This document shows positions 51,826 to 62,351 of a DNA stretch of 64,000 nt, one piece after another. The DNA is from Escherichia coli (GTDB lineage: Bacteria > Pseudomonadota > Gammaproteobacteria > Enterobacterales > Enterobacteriaceae): assembly GCF_003019035.1 (NCBI RefSeq), contig NZ_CP027447.1. One strand, 5' to 3'. The position numbers and the translations under genes were made by a program. The notes under the pieces were generated by a model. The model searched no databases. It was not told where the DNA came from and saw only the letters and a list, made by a program, of their open reading frames with translations. The stretch's first letter is position 1, and each line of letters opens with the position of its first letter.

Positions 51826-53674
51826 AGTTAACATTACAAGATATAAGTAATGGACGCACTCCCAATTAGTCTATTTAAATCGCCACGAGTTTAACTGACA
51901 ACCCATGATCAATTATGAATTGCAACTATTTCTGTAGTCACTTTTGTGGGGACAGTCCACAAAACTGCCAACTTCCGCTTCTTGCTCTTAGCGGACATTA
52001 GCATAGGCTATTTACCATAACGCCTCATTACGCGCACCGCCCAGACTGACTCAGCGCGTTTCTGGCATATCCCCGGTAAAACAAGTAACAAACCACCCGA
52101 AAATGAACACCAGAAACGCGACTTAAGAATCTACCCTATGAATGGATATGCACTCAACCGAATCGATCTTGGTTTCAATCTTTTTTATCGGGATCAGGCT
52201 TCTTTTTAGGTAACTTCGGGGGCTTAACTTGCTGATGACTTTGCGTTCGGCGCGTAAGCCAGGGATGGTCAGCTTTAGGTTTAACATAGTATTTTGAGCG
52301 TAAATCAATACGGGCATTATCCACTCGTTCATGGACACTCTTTTCATCATCCAGTGGTATAGGCTCCGGGCCATCAACATACTTTTCCCAGCCCAGCGCT
52401 TTCCCGTCATACAGAACGTTAATTTCACCGTCAAAGTTCTCGCATACAGTAACAACCGAATGCCTAAGTCGATATCCCCGGCCCTCACTGCGTACCTGAA
52501 ACGCACTGCTTTTGTACTGGAAAGTGAGATTTTTAGACAGAACGCGCTTCGCCTGTAGGCTGAAGATATAACCCAGTTCCTCTTCAGAATGGTGCACATC
52601 AAGATGAGCATTATCAGTAGTACGAGGCGACGTAGCGAACCGGTTGTTATAGGCTTCAATAAAGGTCGGCAACCATGCATTTGCTGTTTCAATATCACTG
52701 ATATTCTGAAGCCGCATTTCTTTGACCAGCCTGTCCTGTAGTGTCTGATTGGCGCGCTCTACCCGCCCTTTTGCCTGCGGGCTGTTGGCATGGATTGGCT
52801 CGATGCCCAGTGTCTTTATCGCACGAGTGAACTGGGTCAGCTCACCTTCCCGCTCTGGGTTATTTACCCTGAATATACTGTGTCTATCAGAGTAGAGAGC
52901 GAGCGGTACGCCATGATCATTAAGGTAACCCCGGAGGGTTTCCATGTAAGCCCGGGTTGTTTCAGCAGGCACAAAACGCAACGCCATCAACGCACTGGTG
53001 GCATCATCAATGAAAACGATCAGTGTACATCTGGGGCCTCGATTTTCAAACCAGTCATGAGGTGAGCCATCAATCTGGATCAGTTCACCGTAAGATGGTC
53101 GTCGCATGCGGCGTTGATATATACGGGCAATTTTACGACGGCGTTCACGCCATAACCCCTCTTCTATCATCCACTTTCTGAGAGTTTCAACGGATAAAGA
53201 TAAACCGTGTATCTCGCGCAATTTTTCGCACGCAAACGTAGGTCCAAAATCAGCGTAACGGCCTTTGAGGAGTGAAATTACTGTTGCTCTGAATTCAGTA
53301 GAAAAGGAATTATTAGGACGCTTTCCACGTCGGTGGGAAACCAGACCAGAAGGCCCTTCATTTCTATACCGTTGCACCAGACGTTTAACCTGCCGAATAG
53401 AAATGCCAATGCGTGCCGCAGCTTGTTCCTGAATAATCTGAAGTCGGTGGAGTTCCTTATGACTCATCGTAACAGTCTCTTTGATCATGAAAAATCCCCC
53501 AGAGAATTGTCTGGGGACATTTTAGAATGGTTCAAAGGGGACATTACAGCTTGGTGTTAACAATAGCCTGCTTCTCCGTGCCTTTCGGCACGTAAGAGGC
53601 TAACCTACATGTGTCTAGCATGAAATTGGCCTCAGATTAATGTTAAGCGTCTTGCAGGACGCGTAATGTTAACT
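51826..53674. mobile_element. Insertion sequence (family uncertain, IS481/ISNCY-like); boundaries tentative
   Basis: Single 437 aa DDE transposase ORF flanked by a 12-bp perfect inverted repeat agttaacattac (51826-51837) / gtaatgttaact (53663-53674); no clear target-site duplication seen. Confidence 0.35.
52175..53488 (-). CDS. DDE transposase with N-terminal HTH and rve-type integrase core
   Basis: 437 aa; HTH near N-terminus (IGISIRQVKRLVQRY); catalytic-triad candidates in IQIDGS, YSDRHSIF and KGRVERANQTL. Confidence 0.8.
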   Translation of the reverse strand: MIKETVTMSHKELHRLQIIQEQAAARIGISIRQVKRLVQRYRNEGPSGLVSHRRGKRPNNSFSTEFRATVISLLKGRYADFGPTFACEKLREIHGLSLSVETLRKWMIEEGLWRERRRKIARIYQRRMRRPSYGELIQIDGSPHDWFENRGPRCTLIVFIDDATSALMALRFVPAETTRAYMETLRGYLNDHGVPLALYSDRHSIFRVNNPEREGELTQFTRAIKTLGIEPIHANSPQAKGRVERANQTLQDRLVKEMRLQNISDIETANAWLPTFIEAYNNRFATSPRTTDNAHLDVHHSEEELGYIFSLQAKRVLSKNLTFQYKSSAFQVRSEGRGYRLRHSVVTVCENFDGEINVLYDGKALGWEKYVDGPEPIPLDDEKSVHERVDNARIDLRSKYYVKPKADHPWLTRRTQSHQQVKPPKLPKKKPDPDKKD

Positions 53675-53822
53675 GGGGCTTTTCTCTATCTGCCGTTGGT
53701 GTCCATGCCCGAGGCAGATAGCCTCAAGCACCCGCAGTCATTCTACTTAACTAAGATTTCCCCGCAAACCGTTTTTGTCCAGCACAGTAAATATCCAACT
53801 AAACCAATGGAGTTCGCTGTAT

Positions 53823-54041
53823 TTACCGCCAGTATTCAATGCACATGACCGCCATGAACACCCCTAAAAAAAGGGCATTTATATATCCAAATATTAATAT
53901 CAAAACATCAACTTTTTCCATATACCTTGCTGTGAAGATGATGGGCATACATGATGCGAACAACCAGAACGCAACAAACAAAAACTGCAATGCGTTTTTC
54001 ATTATTCCTCCTACAATCAATGTGCAATTACATTTAAACAC
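53823..54041 (-). CDS. Hypothetical small membrane protein (two predicted TM helices)
   Basis: 72 aa ORF (likely start MKNALQFLFVAFWLFASCMPIIF...); AT-rich codon usage unlike the flanking phage genes. Confidence 0.4.
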   Translation of the reverse strand: MFKCNCTLIVGGIMKNALQFLFVAFWLFASCMPIIFTARYMEKVDVLILIFGYINALFLGVFMAVMCIEYWR

Positions 54042-54433
54042 ACCTCAATTTGGCCGGACATATAAATATCTAAACCAGAAAAAATCACTTACATAGCGTT
54101 ACAAACTCTTTAGTCTAAAGGTTCATCGTAAAACATTCCCCATACTTATCAGTCCGTTCCGCGCCAGGTAGCTCATTGCCTTATCTGGCAACCTGTAATC
54201 AGGTTTCCGCTTTTTCAGTTGGCTGGTCGTTTAACCGACATAGTTAATCCATTAATCTAGTTGCCGGATGTTGGTGGATTTTCGCGTTTTAGTTGTTCAT
54301 AAAAGTGCACAGCTTTAACCAGTTCTTCTGATGTAACTGGGACTGGTGAGGCAGTGAATAAGGCCTGAATTTGATAGTTCGGCCTGTCGTTACAATCCTC
54401 TTTTTTCGGTACATATTTCCAGTCACCAGACCA

Positions 54434-54892
54434 CTACTTCCCCTGAAAGTCCGTAACGCCTTTTTTCACGTAGCGATATCGCCATGCCACTGGTTTTGCT
54501 TGCCCCGCCGTTTCATGCCCTTCCTGATAATTAATCTCGCTCATTCATCGCCCCACTCATCACAATATGCTTCGACCGGAGTTTTTCCCGCTTCATAGTC
54601 ATCACGCTAGGATTCGACATCAGCAGCACTTCCACCGCGTAACTCACCATAGTCCATTAATAGTTCATCCCGCTCTTCAAAACTGATGTTATATTTAGCT
54701 GAACAAAAATCAGCCACTTTGTTCTTCCTCATCGTCTTTTATTTCGTGGTATGAGTAATTGCAGTAGTTAAAGAAAATTTCTTATGCTCCGTCATGAATT
54801 TCCTCAGGTGTTGCGTCATCGTCCACTTCGAATACATCCTCAAAATCTCCACCAGCTATTCCCGTTTCAATAATAATTTTGAACTTTCGCAT
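54434..54892 (-). other. Cluster of tiny overlapping ORFs (23-41 aa) in shifting frames; probably decayed gene(s)
   Basis: Hand translation gives 36, 41, 23 and 36 aa ORFs at 54782-54892, 54607-54732, 54531-54602 and 54434-54544; an alternative frame across the second gap reads protein-like DDYEAGKTPVEAYCDEWGDE; SD sequences are weak. Confidence 0.3.
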
Positions 54893-55154
54893 TTCACTAC
54901 CGCCCTTTCGGGCGGCCTCCTGATGTTCTGAGGGTGCAGAAATCCATCCGGTTAAGGATTAAATTTTATTTACAGAACTGAATTTAATTATTCAGATATA
55001 CGTATCTGTAGCCTTACGAATCTACTCACTGGATGCCTCTTTCATAAAAATAATCCAGTGGGTTTTATCGTTTTTTCCCTGTTCGTTGACAGATAACAGG
55101 TTTTCTGTCTGTCAGTGCCAGAATCTGGCTTACCGGTATTTGCGTTTCATTCCA

Positions 55155-55511
55155 TTAAAAAATCAGAACGCCGTGCGGCCTCAACACCCGAAAGGCTTCT
55201 TTAAATCTCTGTCGCGAATCATCACGCCAGGCATCTTTATTCAGCCGTCCATATTTCTTTCCCATCCAGGCGTTATCACCAACACTCTCAAGATGCGGAG
55301 GGTCTAATACAACCATCGAAAAAGATGCGTCTGCAAATGATAATGCACGAAAATCTGCGATAATGTCAGGGCTGATAATCAAGCGTCTCCCATTGCGTAA
55401 TGTGTATCCTTCTTTTCTGATATCGCTGAATATCGCCCGTTCGTCAGACTTATCGAACCAGAACATGCGGCTGCCACAGCACATATCAAGAATGGTTGCC
55501 GGTGCACTCAC
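55155..55511 (-). CDS. SAM-dependent methyltransferase-like protein (motif I and DPPH motif IV), possibly truncated
   Basis: 118 aa; ILDMCCGSR resembles SAM-binding motif I and VVLDPPH resembles the D/N-PP-Y/F/H motif IV of amino-methyltransferases; too short for a complete DNA MTase. Confidence 0.45.
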   Translation of the reverse strand: MSAPATILDMCCGSRMFWFDKSDERAIFSDIRKEGYTLRNGRRLIISPDIIADFRALSFADASFSMVVLDPPHLESVGDNAWMGKKYGRLNKDAWRDDSRQRFKEAFRVLRPHGVLIF

Positions 55512-55930
55512 TGCGCCACGTCCTGAAAATTACCCTGATAGAAAGCCAGTATGCGCTGCATAACTTCGCTCTTCCGGCACTCGCGACAGATTATGTTTAG
55601 GCGACTGTCGTAGCGACGTATTTCTCCGTCAGGTGATGACCAGATAAGGTCCGGATCAACCACAGCAGGTTTCTTCACCTTTGCCCTCGAGAGTTTTTTG
55701 CGGGCGTTTTGCCAGTCCTTACGCGCCTGTTCAGAGGGGAATAACCCGTAGCCGGAGTTGTATACATCGCCACTGGCTACCAGCTCTCTGGCAAGAACGC
55801 TCATCAGATATCTAGTCGCACCTGTTTTAGCTTCCAGTTGCCGTAACGTCTCACGGCCGCTCTGGCGCACGAGTTCCACCACCTGCCATTTAATTTTTTC
55901 CCGCTCTTCTTGTGTAAAAACTTTTGCCAC
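55508..55930 (-). CDS. Hypothetical protein (early-region, possible DNA-binding)
   Basis: 140 aa; basic; CRECR near C-terminus; stop overlaps the start of the methyltransferase-like ORF. Confidence 0.5.
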   Translation of the reverse strand: MAKVFTQEEREKIKWQVVELVRQSGRETLRQLEAKTGATRYLMSVLARELVASGDVYNSGYGLFPSEQARKDWQNARKKLSRAKVKKPAVVDPDLIWSSPDGEIRRYDSRLNIICRECRKSEVMQRILAFYQGNFQDVAQ

Positions 55931-55970
55931 AAGTCCCCCTTAAAATTACCTCATGACCTGAAATCAACAC

Positions 55971-56990
55971 TTATCCTCTGAAACCAGGCGGAATTTCTGT
56001 ATCCGGTTCAGAAATATGATTAACACAACGCTGTACAGGTGAACGTCCCAGGCGGATGACCAGTTCGTCCCATTTTTCGCGGAGCTTTGACGGGCTCATG
56101 ATGTTTTTTACCCAGAATGGATCTCGCTGAACCCGACCAAACATTTCGCAAATTTGTCTGTGGCTTCTGCCATCCAGCATCCGCATTGTGCGCACGTCAT
56201 TGGCCCAGGCAGTCCAGTTAGGCTCTTTTGGTCGCATGATCTCGCCATCATCACTGGCTGCCTGTTCGTAGAGACCCACGATCCGCCCCCAGATCCACTG
56301 CGCACACGCCAAATCCTCCCTGCTACCCCACTGGCGTTTTTTCGCACTAAACACAACCGCGTCGGAGTTCCGGGTTAAAAAATCCTGTTCAGTCGTCTGC
56401 GGGTCCGGTTGCGAAGCTTCCGGACGAAAAGTGTTTTTATTCTCTGTAGTAATCTCTGTTGTATTCTCTGTAAGATCATCAGGCCATTTTGACCCGATGA
56501 CATTGGGTCGTTTTGAACCAATGGAGCGTTTCATTTTGACCTCTTCCATCGTGTCATTTTGACCTGATGGAGCGGCGCATTTTGAACCGATGGATTCGCT
56601 CAATTTGCCACCATCTAAAAGCTCGCTCCCATAGTTGATCGTGTAGAAATTGGTCATATCGCGCTTTGATTTATTGAGCTTTTCACAACGCAAAAGCCCC
56701 AGCGTTTTCAGACTTGCAAACGCGCGCTTTAACGTTGACTCTGACCAGAATGGGAACTGTTCCAGCCATTGTTCCGTTGTGTTATAAATCCAGCGAACAC
56801 CATCACATTCCATGCCGGAGTTGGTATCTCTCAACCAGTAGTGCAGTTGTTGCAAAACAATGGCTTCGTTTAAGCCAATTTTCATTGCCAGCTGCGTGTT
56901 TATAACCAGTGGGCGTTCAGCAAAAAGAAGGCTCATAATTCCATCCAGCTTTTTGTTGGTATTGCTGTCGATACGCAAGTTTGAAAGCAA
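55971..56990 (-). CDS. Putative replication initiation protein (replisome-organiser-like)
   Basis: 339 aa ORF in the position of lambda O, downstream of the cro-like dicC; N-terminal winged-helix-like segment; start may be the internal MSLLFAERPLV. Confidence 0.45.
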   Translation of the reverse strand: MLSNLRIDSNTNKKLDGIMSLLFAERPLVINTQLAMKIGLNEAIVLQQLHYWLRDTNSGMECDGVRWIYNTTEQWLEQFPFWSESTLKRAFASLKTLGLLRCEKLNKSKRDMTNFYTINYGSELLDGGKLSESIGSKCAAPSGQNDTMEEVKMKRSIGSKRPNVIGSKWPDDLTENTTEITTENKNTFRPEASQPDPQTTEQDFLTRNSDAVVFSAKKRQWGSREDLACAQWIWGRIVGLYEQAASDDGEIMRPKEPNWTAWANDVRTMRMLDGRSHRQICEMFGRVQRDPFWVKNIMSPSKLREKWDELVIRLGRSPVQRCVNHISEPDTEIPPGFRG

Positions 56991-57438
56991 TTGCTTTTTC
57001 TATAAGTTCGTCAGTTTCACGATCCACTACGGCAGGATCAGCAAAAAGCAGTCCGGACTCCACCACATCGCCATATTCTTTGTTTAACCCGGCGATCATG
57101 CACGTGATGCTTTTTCCGTCAGTAATTTCACGATACAACCTGAAATCATTAATCCGGATAGCCTCCATAATTGCAGGCACTAGCGCCGTGAACTTTTCAC
57201 GCTTATCCCTGGTGTCGATAGCCTTCCAGCGTTCAAATATCTTCACTCGATTAACGCCAAGCGCTCGCTGATCAATCGCGCCACCTTCATATGTGACACG
57301 CTGAACATCGATGTTCGGGCGCTCTTTCAAAGCCCAGAATGCTTCAGTGATTAATATCGTCGCCTGCTCCTGTGTCATTCCTGGTCGACATATCCAGGCA
57401 TCCAGAGCCTCACGAGCCTGTTCAGGAGTGATTTTCAT
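56917..57438 (-). CDS. Hypothetical protein directly downstream of dicC
   Basis: 173 aa ORF overlapping the dicC stop and the next ORF; no motif recognised. Confidence 0.45.
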   Translation of the reverse strand: MKITPEQAREALDAWICRPGMTQEQATILITEAFWALKERPNIDVQRVTYEGGAIDQRALGVNRVKIFERWKAIDTRDKREKFTALVPAIMEAIRINDFRLYREITDGKSITCMIAGLNKEYGDVVESGLLFADPAVVDRETDELIEKAIAFKLAYRQQYQQKAGWNYEPSFC

Positions 57439-57652
57439 TGTTCAACCGCCCCGCCCGCTTCGTCTTACGATATTCATCATAAACTTTGGGATCATACTGA
57501 AGCTCCCCGCCAGATGCCTCCTGTAGACGCATCGCGCGACCTTCGGGAACTAAATCCCCTTTCCAGCTATAAAGCGAAGCCAAACGAATACCTGCTGCTT
57601 GTGCAAGTTTTGTTTTTGAACCGAAATACAAAAGAGCGTCAGTTTTAAGCAT
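57422..57652 (-). CDS. dicC: Cro-like regulator DicC
   Basis: 76 aa; matches recalled DicC. Confidence 0.85.
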   Translation of the reverse strand: MLKTDALLYFGSKTKLAQAAGIRLASLYSWKGDLVPEGRAMRLQEASGGELQYDPKVYDEYRKTKRAGRLNNENHS

Positions 57653-57735: not shown

Positions 57736-58143
57736 ATGGAAACAAAAAATTTAACTATCGGCGAACGCATCAGGTATCGTCGGAAAAACCTCAAACACAC
57801 CCAAAGGTCTCTTGCTAAAGCCCTGAAAATCTCCCATGTGTCTGTATCACAATGGGAACGGGGTGATAGTGAACCTACAGGGAAGAACCTTTTTGCCCTC
57901 AGCAAAGTATTGCAATGCTCACCAACATGGATTCTATTTGGCGATGAAGACAAGCAACCAACACCACCTGTTGAGAAGCCAGTTGCCTTATCCCCCAAAG
58001 AACTAGAGCTCCTTGAGCTGTTTAATGCACTGCCAGAATCAGAACAGGATACCCAGCTCGCCGAAATGCGAGCTCGAGTAAAAAACTTCAATAAACTCTT
58101 TGAAGAATTACTAAAAGCCCGTCAGCGGACAAATAAAAGATAA
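57736..58143 (+). CDS. dicA: HTH-XRE repressor DicA
   Basis: 135 aa; matches recalled DicA. Confidence 0.9.
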   Translation: METKNLTIGERIRYRRKNLKHTQRSLAKALKISHVSVSQWERGDSEPTGKNLFALSKVLQCSPTWILFGDEDKQPTPPVEKPVALSPKELELLELFNALPESEQDTQLAEMRARVKNFNKLFEELLKARQRTNKR

Positions 58144-59787: not shown

Positions 59788-59879
59788 AACAGTTCCGTAA
59801 TAAATATCCGGTTTCATTCTTATATGCCAGCAATGGCAGGGATTTGTTCATCCTTAAATCTGTCATGAGGTTAAAACAA

Positions 59880-62351
59880 ATGAGTAAAGTCTTTATTTGC
59901 GCCGCTATTCCTGACGAACTGGCAACAAGGGAAGAAGGCGCTGTGGCTGTAGCCACAGCCATTGAAGCTGGCGACGAACGCCGTGCTCGAGCAAAATTTC
60001 ACTGGCAATTCCTGGAACATTATCCGGCTGCTCAGGACTGCGCTTATAAATTTATTGTCTGCGAGGATAAACCTGGCATACCCCGCCCTGCCCTCGATTC
60101 ATGGGATGCTGAATATATGCAGGAAAACCGCTGGGATGAGGAGTCTGCTTCTTTTGTCCCGGTTGAGACTGAATCCGATCCGATGAACGTCACTTTTGAC
60201 AAGCTGGCCCCTGAAGTACAGAACGCTGTCATGGTTAAGTTCGACACATGTGAAAACATCACCGTTGATATGGTTATTAGCGCACAGGAATTGTTGCAGG
60301 AAGACATGGCAACATTCGACGGACATATCGTTGAAGCGTTGATGAAAATGCCAGAAGTTAACGCCATGTATCCGGAGCTTAAGTTGCACGCCATTGGGTG
60401 GGTTAAGCATAAATGTATTCCTGGTGCTAAATGGCCCGAAATTCAGGCAGAGATGCGCATCTGGAAAAAACGTCGCGAAGGTGAACGCAAGGAAACCGGA
60501 AAATACACGTCTGTTGTTGATCTCGCCCGCGCCAGAGCCAATCAACAGTACACTGAAAATTCAACAGGAAAAATCAGCCCGGTCATTGCTGCCATTCATC
60601 GCGAATACAAGCAGACATGGAAAACACTGGATGACGAACTGGCCTACGCTCTCTGGCCTAGTGATGTGGATGCCGGAAACATTGACGGCAGCATCCATCG
60701 CTGGGCAAAAAAAGAAGTTATCGACAACGACCGCGAAGACTGGAAGCGTATCTCGGCATCAATGCGCAAACAGCCTGATGCCCTTCGCTACGACCGCCAA
60801 ACTATTTTTGGCCTTGTCCGTGAGCGTCCGATCGACATTCACAAAGATCCCGTAGCACTGAACAAATATATCTGCGAATACCTGACGACAAAGGGCGTGT
60901 TTGAGAATGAAGAAACAGACCTGGGCACTGTTGATGTTCTCCAGTCATCAGAAACACAAACTGATGCAGTGGAAACTGAGGTATCTGATATCCCAAAAAA
61001 TGAAACCGCGCCGGAAGCTGAACCATCTGTAGAGCGTGAGGGGCCGTTCTATTTCCTCTTCGCAGATAAGGACGGAGAAAAATACGGTCGCGCAAACAAA
61101 CTCTCTGGTCTGGATAAGGCACTGGCTGCTGGCGCCACTGAAATCACAAAAGAAGAATATTTTGCCCGAAAAAATGGCACATACACGGGCTTACCGCAAA
61201 ATGTAGATACCGCTGAAGATTCAGAACAACCAGAGCCGATAAAAGTTACCGCTGACGAAGTAAACAAAATTATGCAGGCAGCCAATATCAGCCAGCCTGA
61301 CGCCGATAAGTTGCTTGCTGCATCACGTGGTGAATTTGTTGAAGGGATTAGTGACCCGAATGATCCGAAATGGGTTAAGGGGCTCCAGACCCGCGATTCT
61401 GTGAACCAGAACCAGCATGAATCGGAACGGAACTACCAAAAAGCGGAACAAAACAGTCCAAATGCGTTACAAAACGAGCCAGAAACGAAACAGCCTGAAC
61501 CAGTAGCGCAACAGGAAGTGGAAAAAGTCTGCACCGCCTGCGGTCAGACCGGCGGCGGCAACTGCCCTGATTGTGGCGCGGTGATGGGCGACGCAACATA
61601 CCAAGAAACATTCGATGAAGAGTATCAGGTTGAAGTTCAGGAAGATGATCCGGAGGAAATGGAAGGCGCTGAACATCCACACAAGGAGAACACTGGCGGC
61701 AATCAGCATCACAATAGCGATAATGAAACTGGCGAGACGGCAGATCACCCAATTAAGGTGAACGGTCATCACGAAATCACATCCACCAGCAGGACGTGTG
61801 ACCATCTAATGATCGACCTTGAAACCATGGGAAAAAATCCTGATGCCCCGATCATCTCAATAGGTGCAATATTTTTCGATCCGCAAACCGGAGATATGGG
61901 ACCGGAATTTAGTAAGACTATCGATCTGGAAACTGCTGGCGGAGTCATTGATCGGGACACCATTAAATGGTGGCTTAAGCAATCACGCGAAGCGCAATCT
62001 GCCATTATGACCGATGAAATCCCGTTAGATGATGCACTGTTACAATTGCGAGAATTTATCGACGAAAACTCCGGTGAATTTTTTGTTCAGGTTTGGGGAA
62101 ATGGAGCCAACTTCGACAACACGATTTTGCGCCGTTCATACGAACGGCAGGGGATCCCCTGCCCGTGGCGTTACTACAACGATCGCGATGTACGCACAAT
62201 CGTTGAGCTGGGGAAAGCCATAGACTTCGATGCCAGAACGGCTATTCCATTCGAAGGTGAGCGCCATAATGCACTTGATGACGCCCGTTACCAGGCAAAA
62301 TACGTTTCAGTTATCTGGCAAAAACTGATCCCGAGTCAGGCTGATTCTTAA
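59880..62351 (+). CDS. ydfE: YdfE-like large early protein with central zinc ribbon and C-terminal DEDDh 3'-5' exonuclease domain
   Basis: ORF 59844..62351; N-terminus MSKVFICAAIPDELATREEG as recalled for K-12 YdfE; CTACGQTGGGNCPDCG zinc ribbon; C-terminal MIDLETMG / WGNGANFDNTIL / HNALDDARY fit DnaQ-like Exo I, II and III motifs. Confidence 0.7.
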   Translation: MSKVFICAAIPDELATREEGAVAVATAIEAGDERRARAKFHWQFLEHYPAAQDCAYKFIVCEDKPGIPRPALDSWDAEYMQENRWDEESASFVPVETESDPMNVTFDKLAPEVQNAVMVKFDTCENITVDMVISAQELLQEDMATFDGHIVEALMKMPEVNAMYPELKLHAIGWVKHKCIPGAKWPEIQAEMRIWKKRREGERKETGKYTSVVDLARARANQQYTENSTGKISPVIAAIHREYKQTWKTLDDELAYALWPSDVDAGNIDGSIHRWAKKEVIDNDREDWKRISASMRKQPDALRYDRQTIFGLVRERPIDIHKDPVALNKYICEYLTTKGVFENEETDLGTVDVLQSSETQTDAVETEVSDIPKNETAPEAEPSVEREGPFYFLFADKDGEKYGRANKLSGLDKALAAGATEITKEEYFARKNGTYTGLPQNVDTAEDSEQPEPIKVTADEVNKIMQAANISQPDADKLLAASRGEFVEGISDPNDPKWVKGLQTRDSVNQNQHESERNYQKAEQNSPNALQNEPETKQPEPVAQQEVEKVCTACGQTGGGNCPDCGAVMGDATYQETFDEEYQVEVQEDDPEEMEGAEHPHKENTGGNQHHNSDNETGETADHPIKVNGHHEITSTSRTCDHLMIDLETMGKNPDAPIISIGAIFFDPQTGDMGPEFSKTIDLETAGGVIDRDTIKWWLKQSREAQSAIMTDEIPLDDALLQLREFIDENSGEFFVQVWGNGANFDNTILRRSYERQGIPCPWRYYNDRDVRTIVELGKAIDFDARTAIPFEGERHNALDDARYQAKYVSVIWQKLIPSQADS

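Follow-up and report, generated by a model that had tools for sequence, protein, structure and literature searches.

How a prophage origin acquires the replicative helicase DnaB when no helicase loader is encoded beside it is the question raised by a locus in a 64,000-nt stretch of Escherichia coli DNA (contig NZ_CP027447.1), the whole of which is referred to below as the window. A Qin-like lambdoid E. coli prophage makes up the right end of the window. Its cro-like gene dicC (57422-57652, minus strand; NCBIfam DicC 1.8e-47, Pfam P22_Cro 1.7e-11) opens the rightward early operon and is followed on the same strand by open reading frames (ORFs) of 173 aa (56917-57438), 339 aa (55971-56990) and 140 aa (55508-55930). 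A first-pass annotation had correctly placed these three ORFs and had described them as a replication module lacking a DnaC/P-type ATPase or DnaB-like helicase, either because host loaders were used through an unfamiliar adaptor or because an insertion sequence (IS) had removed part of the module. Our analysis points to a module with a single replication gene, which encodes a lambda-O-type initiator, contains the origin and ends in a tail resembling the C-terminus of the host protein DnaT. On balance, we lean slightly towards a mechanism in which the origin-bound initiator uses this DnaT-type tail to recruit the host DnaC-DnaB.

The absence of a loader was confirmed by several types of search. 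Comparison of the three ORFs and of a 118-aa methyltransferase ORF further downstream with Pfam, PHROGs, NCBIfam and PDB sequences gave no match to a P-loop ATPase, lambda P, DnaC or DnaB. With five P proteins and E. coli DnaC as phmmer queries, no window ORF of 100 aa or longer gave a hit at E≤1. The three ORFs contained no Walker A motif, and matches to this motif in the window were restricted to lysis genes and spurious ORFs. The same region is present without any change in the 48.7-kb record 'Escherichia phage PhiR42_1' (stated host ECOR13), whose lambda-like genome is complete (Nu1 through J, Stf, Tfa) and has no annotated helicase, loader or primase. Identical copies (100%) of the 6.5 kb around the module occur in many complete E. 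coli genomes, and at least 80% of this region is carried by 263 of them.

Related loci are built in the same way. In what follows, related proteins and loci used for comparison carry P and L labels, respectively. Initiators that are 68% identical to that of the window (P0099, P0038) occur in complete operons of Salmonella, Citrobacter and E. coli that have no loader; the gene order in these intact relatives is cI, cro, cII, DUF4222, O-like, small protein, methyltransferase, RusA, Q and lysis genes. A loader is likewise absent from Shigella phage VIT_AJPSC and from 79 viral contigs. Lambdoid modules that are O-only, i.e. that have an O homologue in a phage genome devoid of helicase, loader and primase genes, have been reported for 34 of 314 lambdoid phages, and their replication was called 'not yet understood' (PMC12315714). 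One of these phages, LLS (PQ299149), forms plaques on K-12 with a one-gene O-only replication module (PMC12315714). According to the window scan and the PhiR42_1 annotation, the present locus fits this definition. The comparisons show that absence of a loader is a conserved trait of the initiator family.

These data also decide the fate of the proposed IS-mediated loss. The ISNCY transposase ORF (52175-53488) lies about 2.5 kb past the stop codon of the initiator gene, the DUF977 (140 aa) and methyltransferase genes in between are intact, and relatives in intact prophages (P0099, P0038) and the plaque-forming phage LLS are loader-less as well. Removal of a loader gene by the IS was rejected on these grounds. 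The other half of the first-pass proposal, the use of a host loader, gained support from the properties of the initiator described below.

The initiator gene was called mechanically as a 339-aa ORF with a TTG start at 56990, on the minus strand. The probable start is the ATG at 56936, as annotated in both RefSeq and PhiR42_1, which gives a protein of 321 aa (55971-56936, minus strand). RefSeq lists it as 'hypothetical protein' (WP_000054512.1), and it is 100% identical to the 'DNA replication protein O' of PhiR42_1. The suggestion that it is replication-initiator-like proved right: the sequence matches PHROG 391, 'replication initiation O-like', at 1.3e-91, and residues 170-294 share 36% identity with the C-terminal domain (CTD) of lambda O (tblastn, E 2e-16). 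The CTD forms a helical domain of the lambda-O CTD family at approximately aa 183-296 (56049-56390, minus strand) and contains the conserved motifs PNWxxWANxIRLM and FWxxNILSPxKLREKW. By these comparisons, assignment of the 321-aa protein as a lambda-O-type initiator is strongly supported.

The N-terminal part of the protein belongs to a different family from that of lambda O. No Pfam match to Phage_rep_O (PF04492), the N-terminal domain of that type, was found in the initiator. Residues 1 to about 105 (56622-56936, minus strand) match PHROGs 6493, 428 and 11233 and are predicted, by analogy, to form the origin-binding domain. Over about 125 aa the N-terminus is 44-47% identical to the N-termini of phage initiators from Staphylococcus, Bacillus and Pseudomonas, and it represents another widespread family of initiator N-domains. 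For the lambda-O-type CTD we found 2886 relatives among 1.84 billion representatives, with many different N-terminal domains attached and a few recurrent tail classes.

A search for iterons inside the 339-aa ORF, as had been proposed, was positive. Five units of 23 bp, spaced 23-24 bp apart (repeat families D1 and D2), occupy positions 56477-56592 of the initiator gene, the individual units being 56477-56499, 56501-56523, 56524-56546 (degenerate), 56547-56569 and 56570-56592. The core pattern CATYRGKTCAAAAYG has four matches in this array and none elsewhere in the 64 kb, where 0.17 would be expected; none of 100 shuffled sequences reached four matches. At the protein level the iterons encode a repeated peptide, SIGSK/VIGSK, which is kept in relatives. 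Adjoining the iterons, downstream in the direction of the gene, is an AT-rich and strand-asymmetric tract (56420-56476) with a GC content of 0.33-0.38 in 40-bp windows, which is the presumed unwinding element. It includes two copies of TACAGAGAATAMAA (repeat D7) at 56435-56448 and 56459-56472. Iterons followed by an AT-rich tract form the layout of ori-lambda. The region of iterons and AT-rich sequence contains no DnaA boxes, of which the window as a whole has 4 against 6.7 expected. The location of an origin, composed of the five iterons and the AT-rich tract, within the initiator gene is therefore strongly supported. Natural initiator variants of 290 aa (P0018-P0021) lack 31 aa, or 93 bp, corresponding to exactly four 23-bp iterons; these variants represent an iteron copy-number polymorphism of the origin.

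The CTD is followed by a variable linker and a C-terminal tail (55974-56048, minus strand) that we propose to be a loader-docking motif. Of the last 21 residues of the initiator, VQRCVNHISEPDTEIPPGFRG, 14 are identical to those at the E. coli DnaT C-terminus, and the tail peptide SEPDTEIPPGFRG has the DnaT form ..SEPDxxIPxGFRG. The tail matches positions 160-179 of 179 in NCBIfam PRK02854 as well as PDB chains 2ru8, 6aep and 9zbt_D. Outside the tail, phmmer and NCBIfam searches of the initiator gave no similarity to DnaT, and neither the DnaT N-terminal domain nor the acidic PriB-binding linker is present. The whole initiator scores 16 bits against the DnaT profile PRK02854, for which the cut-off is 201. 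In a profile-profile comparison, homology of the O CTD to the DnaT CTD could not be demonstrated, the hhalign probability being 0.5%. The initiator is not a member of the DnaT family, and the tail is the one part demonstrably common to both proteins.

Among relatives the linker ahead of the motif varies in length and sequence, and the terminal [IV]PxGFRG is kept. The O protein of LLS has a different CTD, of the Phg_2220_C type, yet ends in ..KIPEGFRG, and 77 relatives with four types of N-terminal domain also end in a DnaT-type tail. An O-like initiator from another locus (P0192, L262:5001-6044) has two consecutive DnaT-type motifs at the C-terminal end, ..DYSIPKGFRGHDENEGYRGFGSPQKHVSDDVETEIPHGFRG.

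On the host side, the DnaT tail is kept in 79 of 80 Enterobacteriaceae species. Across the dnaT-dnaC loci sampled (L232-L258), DnaT ends in ..GFRGAK in Enterobacter, Lelliottia and Pseudenterobacter and in ..GFRG in most other genera; GFRGAK was also found in two loci labelled Escherichia sp. ESNIH1 and in a Citrobacter metagenome-assembled genome. The O proteins that end in ..GFRGAKQ come only from Enterobacter genomes, among those with a named source. Tail variants thus appear to track the host. We ruled out that the tail was captured recently from the host gene: where they can be aligned, the tail DNA and the dnaT 3' end share about 75% identity, and the codons for IPPGFRG carry synonymous differences.

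A connection between tail and loader is suggested by the distribution of tail classes over loader classes. The clearest case is the Qin-like and IS-free relative L009, in which the YdaT-like gene and DUF977 of the window recur together with an initiator that has 75% identity to the window's. Its initiator ends in ..GDWNSADGWEDVL (..DGWEDVL), a tail different from that of the window, and a Phage_lambda_P gene is present between the initiator and DUF977. The DNA homology between the window and L009 ends exactly after the codons for ..RLG, just upstream of the tail. The comparison is a natural experiment in which tail and P were exchanged together at a clean mosaic junction. Downstream of DUF977, L009 also encodes an 85-aa DNA_pol3_theta (HolE-like) protein (L009:8936-9193), which would be a phage-borne homologue of the Pol III theta subunit.

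The same relation was seen in the other loci examined. Lambda O ends in ..TDWIYGVDL, and tails of this tryptophan-acidic, lambda-type class were immediately followed by P in six of six cases (lambda, L009, L083, L095, L096 and Klebsiella phage 2b). A DnaT-type tail was never followed by P. In most cases it occurs without a loader, as in the window, L003-L006, 79 + 77 viral contigs, LLS, L092, L093/094, L097, L098, L261 and L262. A simple rule by which a DnaT-type tail means that no loader is present was falsified by two cases. The initiator P0122 (L260), with the tail ..RDINRISRPDSSVPPGFRG, is directly followed by a protein whose full length aligns with E. coli DnaC at 48.5% identity. Similarly, YdaU of the K-12 Rac prophage ends in ..RQVNTVSLPDSAIPPGFRG (..VNTVSLPDSAIPPGFRG), and the next gene encodes YdaV, 50% identical to DnaC; this YdaU-YdaV pairing was found in all 76 Rac-type viral contigs. 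The order dnaT then dnaC in the host operon is mirrored by both L260 and Rac YdaU-YdaV. A better rule, judged from these gene neighbourhoods, is that a DnaT-type tail probably goes with a loader of the DnaC lineage, either phage-borne or the host's.

A third class of tails, ..QDYRxGVxADG[ST]F (..GVGADGSF), was followed in seven of seven loci (L346-L352) by an overlapping gene whose product is a distant DnaC-like loader, with 34-36% identity to E. coli DnaC confined to the AAA+ region. This class supports the notion that the extreme C-terminus may select the loader. Further recurrent tails are ..IDGYAVRVD and ..VPAGEVAL; a scan of viral contigs with P0200, which represents the ..RVD class, returned no relatives. 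In Vibrio phage K62 (L344:2581-3510) an O-like protein with a lambda-type CTD has an acidic ..DDSEGDPQFRF tail, and the next gene is neither P nor DnaC-like. Its Vibrio host presumably uses DciA, and the K62 tail may be another tail that docks a host factor.

From these comparisons a mechanism can be proposed. The N-terminal domain of the initiator would bind the iterons and open the AT-rich tract, by analogy with lambda. Lambda O, which has a tryptophan-acidic tail, hands over to DnaB-bound P; in the window initiator the [IV]PxGFRG tail would take the place of that tail and dock a DnaC-lineage loader bound to DnaB, in this case the host DnaC-DnaB, as we infer from comparative genomics. The partner contacted by the tail could be DnaC, DnaB or their complex, and the origin-bound initiator would in effect act as an origin-targeted DnaT. 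The literature on DnaT is compatible with docking through the tail. In preprimosome structures published in 2026 the DnaT CTD was modelled for residues 84-153, which places the tail (154-179) outside the model, and how DnaT recruits DnaB/DnaC 'remains unknown' (PMC13377028).

Several observations weigh against docking of DnaC-DnaB by the tail. The match of the tail to DnaT, taken alone, is borderline (E 0.006-0.04). The model of the Keck laboratory assigns DnaB/DnaC recruitment to DnaT's N-terminal domain, which the phage protein does not have (PMC13377028). Deletion of DnaT residues 154-179 increased the dissociation constant for dT30 from 9.9 to 27 uM and reduced the Hill coefficient from 2.7 to 2.1 (PMC4132743); since both affinity for single-stranded DNA and cooperativity were lowered, the tail might serve DNA binding or self-association. 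An AlphaFold2 (AF2) prediction of E. coli DnaC joined to the DnaT tail by a (GGGGS)x6 linker, based on a paired dnaT-dnaC alignment of 22 rows, had a mean predicted local distance difference test score (pLDDT) of 42.7 with DnaC itself unfolded, and is thus uninformative about docking. Use of a DnaC-like loader does not require a DnaT-type tail either, because the ..ADGSF class pairs with such loaders as well. The sampled loci are phylogenetically redundant and represent approximately 10-12 independent lineages. Finally, the literature search yielded no paper on PhiR42_1 and no growth data for it or for this prophage.

The effect of the DnaT deletion is also the starting point for a serious rival explanation, in which the tail acts in self-association or on a DnaT filament. 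The tail would then bypass direct contact with DnaC-DnaB and bind DnaT-like helical domains, leading to self-assembly or to nucleation of a host DnaT filament at the unwound origin, or would bind PriA/PriB, and the helicase would be obtained through the restart primosome. Weaker and less cooperative binding of dT30 by DnaT lacking the tail fits such a role (PMC4132743), as does an AF2 model of the initiator CTD with its tail, in which pLDDT rose to 78 at the last residues with a hint of docking onto the helical domain. The similarity between YdaU and DnaT reaches beyond the tail (YdaU 211-285 aligned with DnaT 111-179, 40% identity, E 9e-9), and recombination, through RecBCD and Chi sites, aids the growth of LLS. 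Against it, the steady neighbourhood of DnaT-type tails is with genes of the DnaC lineage, in the host operon, Rac and L260; the same tail is attached in LLS O to an unrelated CTD; and the profile comparison of the O and DnaT CTDs gave the very low hhalign probability mentioned above. We consider this route unlikely, with perhaps a fifth part of our confidence.

Rather less credible is the view that the locus is a decayed remnant which has lost P, so that the prophage cannot start replication by itself and persists passively like Qin in K-12. Qin-like prophages are often cryptic, a P-containing relative exists in L009, the IS and pseudogenized ORFs are found 0.4-3 kb downstream of the module, and the methyltransferase ORF spans only part of its PHROG profile. 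However, the 40 bp that separate the initiator gene from the DUF977 gene hold no remnant of P, the tail was swapped together with P at a clean junction, and conservation of the tail is accompanied by synonymous differences from dnaT. The same design without P is present in many intact prophages and in the plaque-forming phage LLS, and the rest of the prophage corresponds to a complete lambda-like genome in PhiR42_1. We therefore regard decay as improbable, and recruitment of the host DnaC-DnaB by the DnaT-type tail remains the reading towards which we lean.

The two ORFs that flank the initiator gene were examined for a role in replication. The 173-aa protein, whose ORF overlaps the initiator start by 20 nt, matches PHROG 163, 'CII-like transcriptional activator', at 5.5e-40 and Pfam YdaT_toxin (PF06254) with 24.2 bits at a cut-off of 21, and has weak PDB sequence matches to 3c4r and 8bt1 (YdaT). 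It is a YdaT/CII-like regulator outside the replication machinery, and because of this the replication module proper consists of a single gene. The 140-aa protein is a DUF977 member (Pfam PF06163, 5.1e-29, covering positions 1-134 of 134; PHROG 142) without a PDB sequence match. The DUF977 gene is a flanking gene and no substitute for a loader. It follows P in L009, lies downstream of the DnaC-like gene in L260 and is missing from the LLS module. Other O-only modules have a different gene next to the initiator gene or none, the genes seen being a PerC-like gene, a gene for a 147-aa protein or, in LLS, a methyltransferase gene directly after O. The first-pass description of a three-ORF replication module thus holds for the initiator and not for its two neighbours. 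Although the DUF977 gene directly follows the initiator gene and its product has no structural match, the idea that this protein or the YdaT-like protein is a hidden loader or an unrecognized helicase adaptor replacing P was discarded as very improbable, given that DUF977 coexists with P and DnaC-like genes, that other O-only modules do without it, and that the 173-aa protein is a regulator of the CII/YdaT type.

The remainder of the prophage includes hokD, relBE, flxA, dicA (57736-58143; NCBIfam 3e-70), dicB, a full-length exonuclease, xis and int. The exonuclease is encoded by an ORF of 835 aa at 59844-62351, which is full-length, exonuclease VIII / YdfE-like and has a DnaQ-like exonuclease region at the C-terminus; the Qin copy of this gene in K-12 is truncated. 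On the other side of the module, the 118-aa S-adenosylmethionine methyltransferase ORF (55155-55511, minus strand) matches positions 52-165 of 229 in PHROG 954. Between this ORF and the ISNCY transposase ORF (53500-55155) only decayed ORFs were found; the RefSeq annotation has a hypothetical gene with a frameshift and a DUF7167 gene interrupted by a stop codon. Here the nin-like region is in decay.

A broader hypothesis can be formulated from the tail data, which we put forward tentatively as a possibility that falls short of an even chance. DnaT, Rac YdaU and the O-only initiators all end in [IV]PxGFRG-COOH, and this tail may be the missing recruitment motif for DnaC-DnaB; O-only phages may present an origin-bound mimic of DnaT, and the dnaT-dnaC operon may be a co-domesticated pair of phage initiator and loader. 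The proposed tail rule pairs lambda-type tails with P, and DnaT-type tails with loaders of the DnaC lineage or with the DnaC of the host. The phage data make the DnaT tail a candidate for the recruitment of DnaB/DnaC, a step left open in the preprimosome structures (PMC13377028). With about a tenth of enterobacterial lambdoid phages being O-only (34/314, PMC12315714), the exchange of tails provides a concrete hypothesis for their replication. The O-only class itself has already been recognized in the literature; the tail motif and the tail-loader rule, as derived from sequence comparison, appear to be a new lead. A search of the literature, limited to open-access text, retrieved no paper on the tail motif, on a rule connecting tail and loader, or on DnaT in connection with O-only phages. 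Even should the tail hypothesis fail, the locus remains a clean case of an initiator-only module with a well-defined origin inside its gene, and it is widespread, with 263 complete E. coli genomes carrying it.

Comparison with known systems places the locus between several of them. The host DnaT of the PriA-PriB-DnaT restart primosome shares the near-identical last 21 residues, and both proteins act upstream of DnaB loading. The window initiator differs in that it is without the N-terminal domain and acidic linker of DnaT, that its helical domain is not detectably related by hhalign, and that it would be targeted by sequence-specific binding to iterons, whereas DnaT is targeted by PriA and fork structure. 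A precedent for linkage of an O-like protein to the DnaT C-terminus exists in DopC-DopE, a domesticated O/P-like pair in which the O-like helix-turn-helix protein has a DnaT C-terminal motif (PMC5509034). DopC is chromosomal, has no iterons and is paired with a P-like protein; in contrast, the window protein is phage-borne, has iterons and is without P. Domestication of a phage gene has been described for enterobacterial dnaC, in an article with no reference to DnaT (PMC5109545).

Among phages, LLS resembles the window in its single O-like gene, the absence of a helicase or loader from the genome and the tail ..KIPEGFRG, whereas both its N-terminal domain and its CTD are of other types. The paper on LLS names neither the tail nor DnaT and describes the mechanism as not understood (PMC12315714). 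The Rac genes ydaS-ydaT-ydaU-ydaV-ydaW show the same order of cro-like gene, YdaT-like gene, initiator and downstream DUF977, and YdaU has a DnaT-type tail. We take ydaW to be the DUF977 gene of Rac. In contrast to the window initiator, YdaU is a DUF1376 protein, and in Rac the initiator gene is followed by the DnaC-like YdaV where the window has no loader. The lambda O-P module shares with the window the iterons and the following AT-rich tract inside the initiator gene, a CTD with 36% identity, and the location in the early-right operon behind cro and cII. It differs in the family of the N-domain, in the presence of a P gene and in the tail, which is ..TDWIYGVDL in lambda and ..IPPGFRG in the window. 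By this analogy, the locus would work like a lambda O-P module in which the P step has been replaced.

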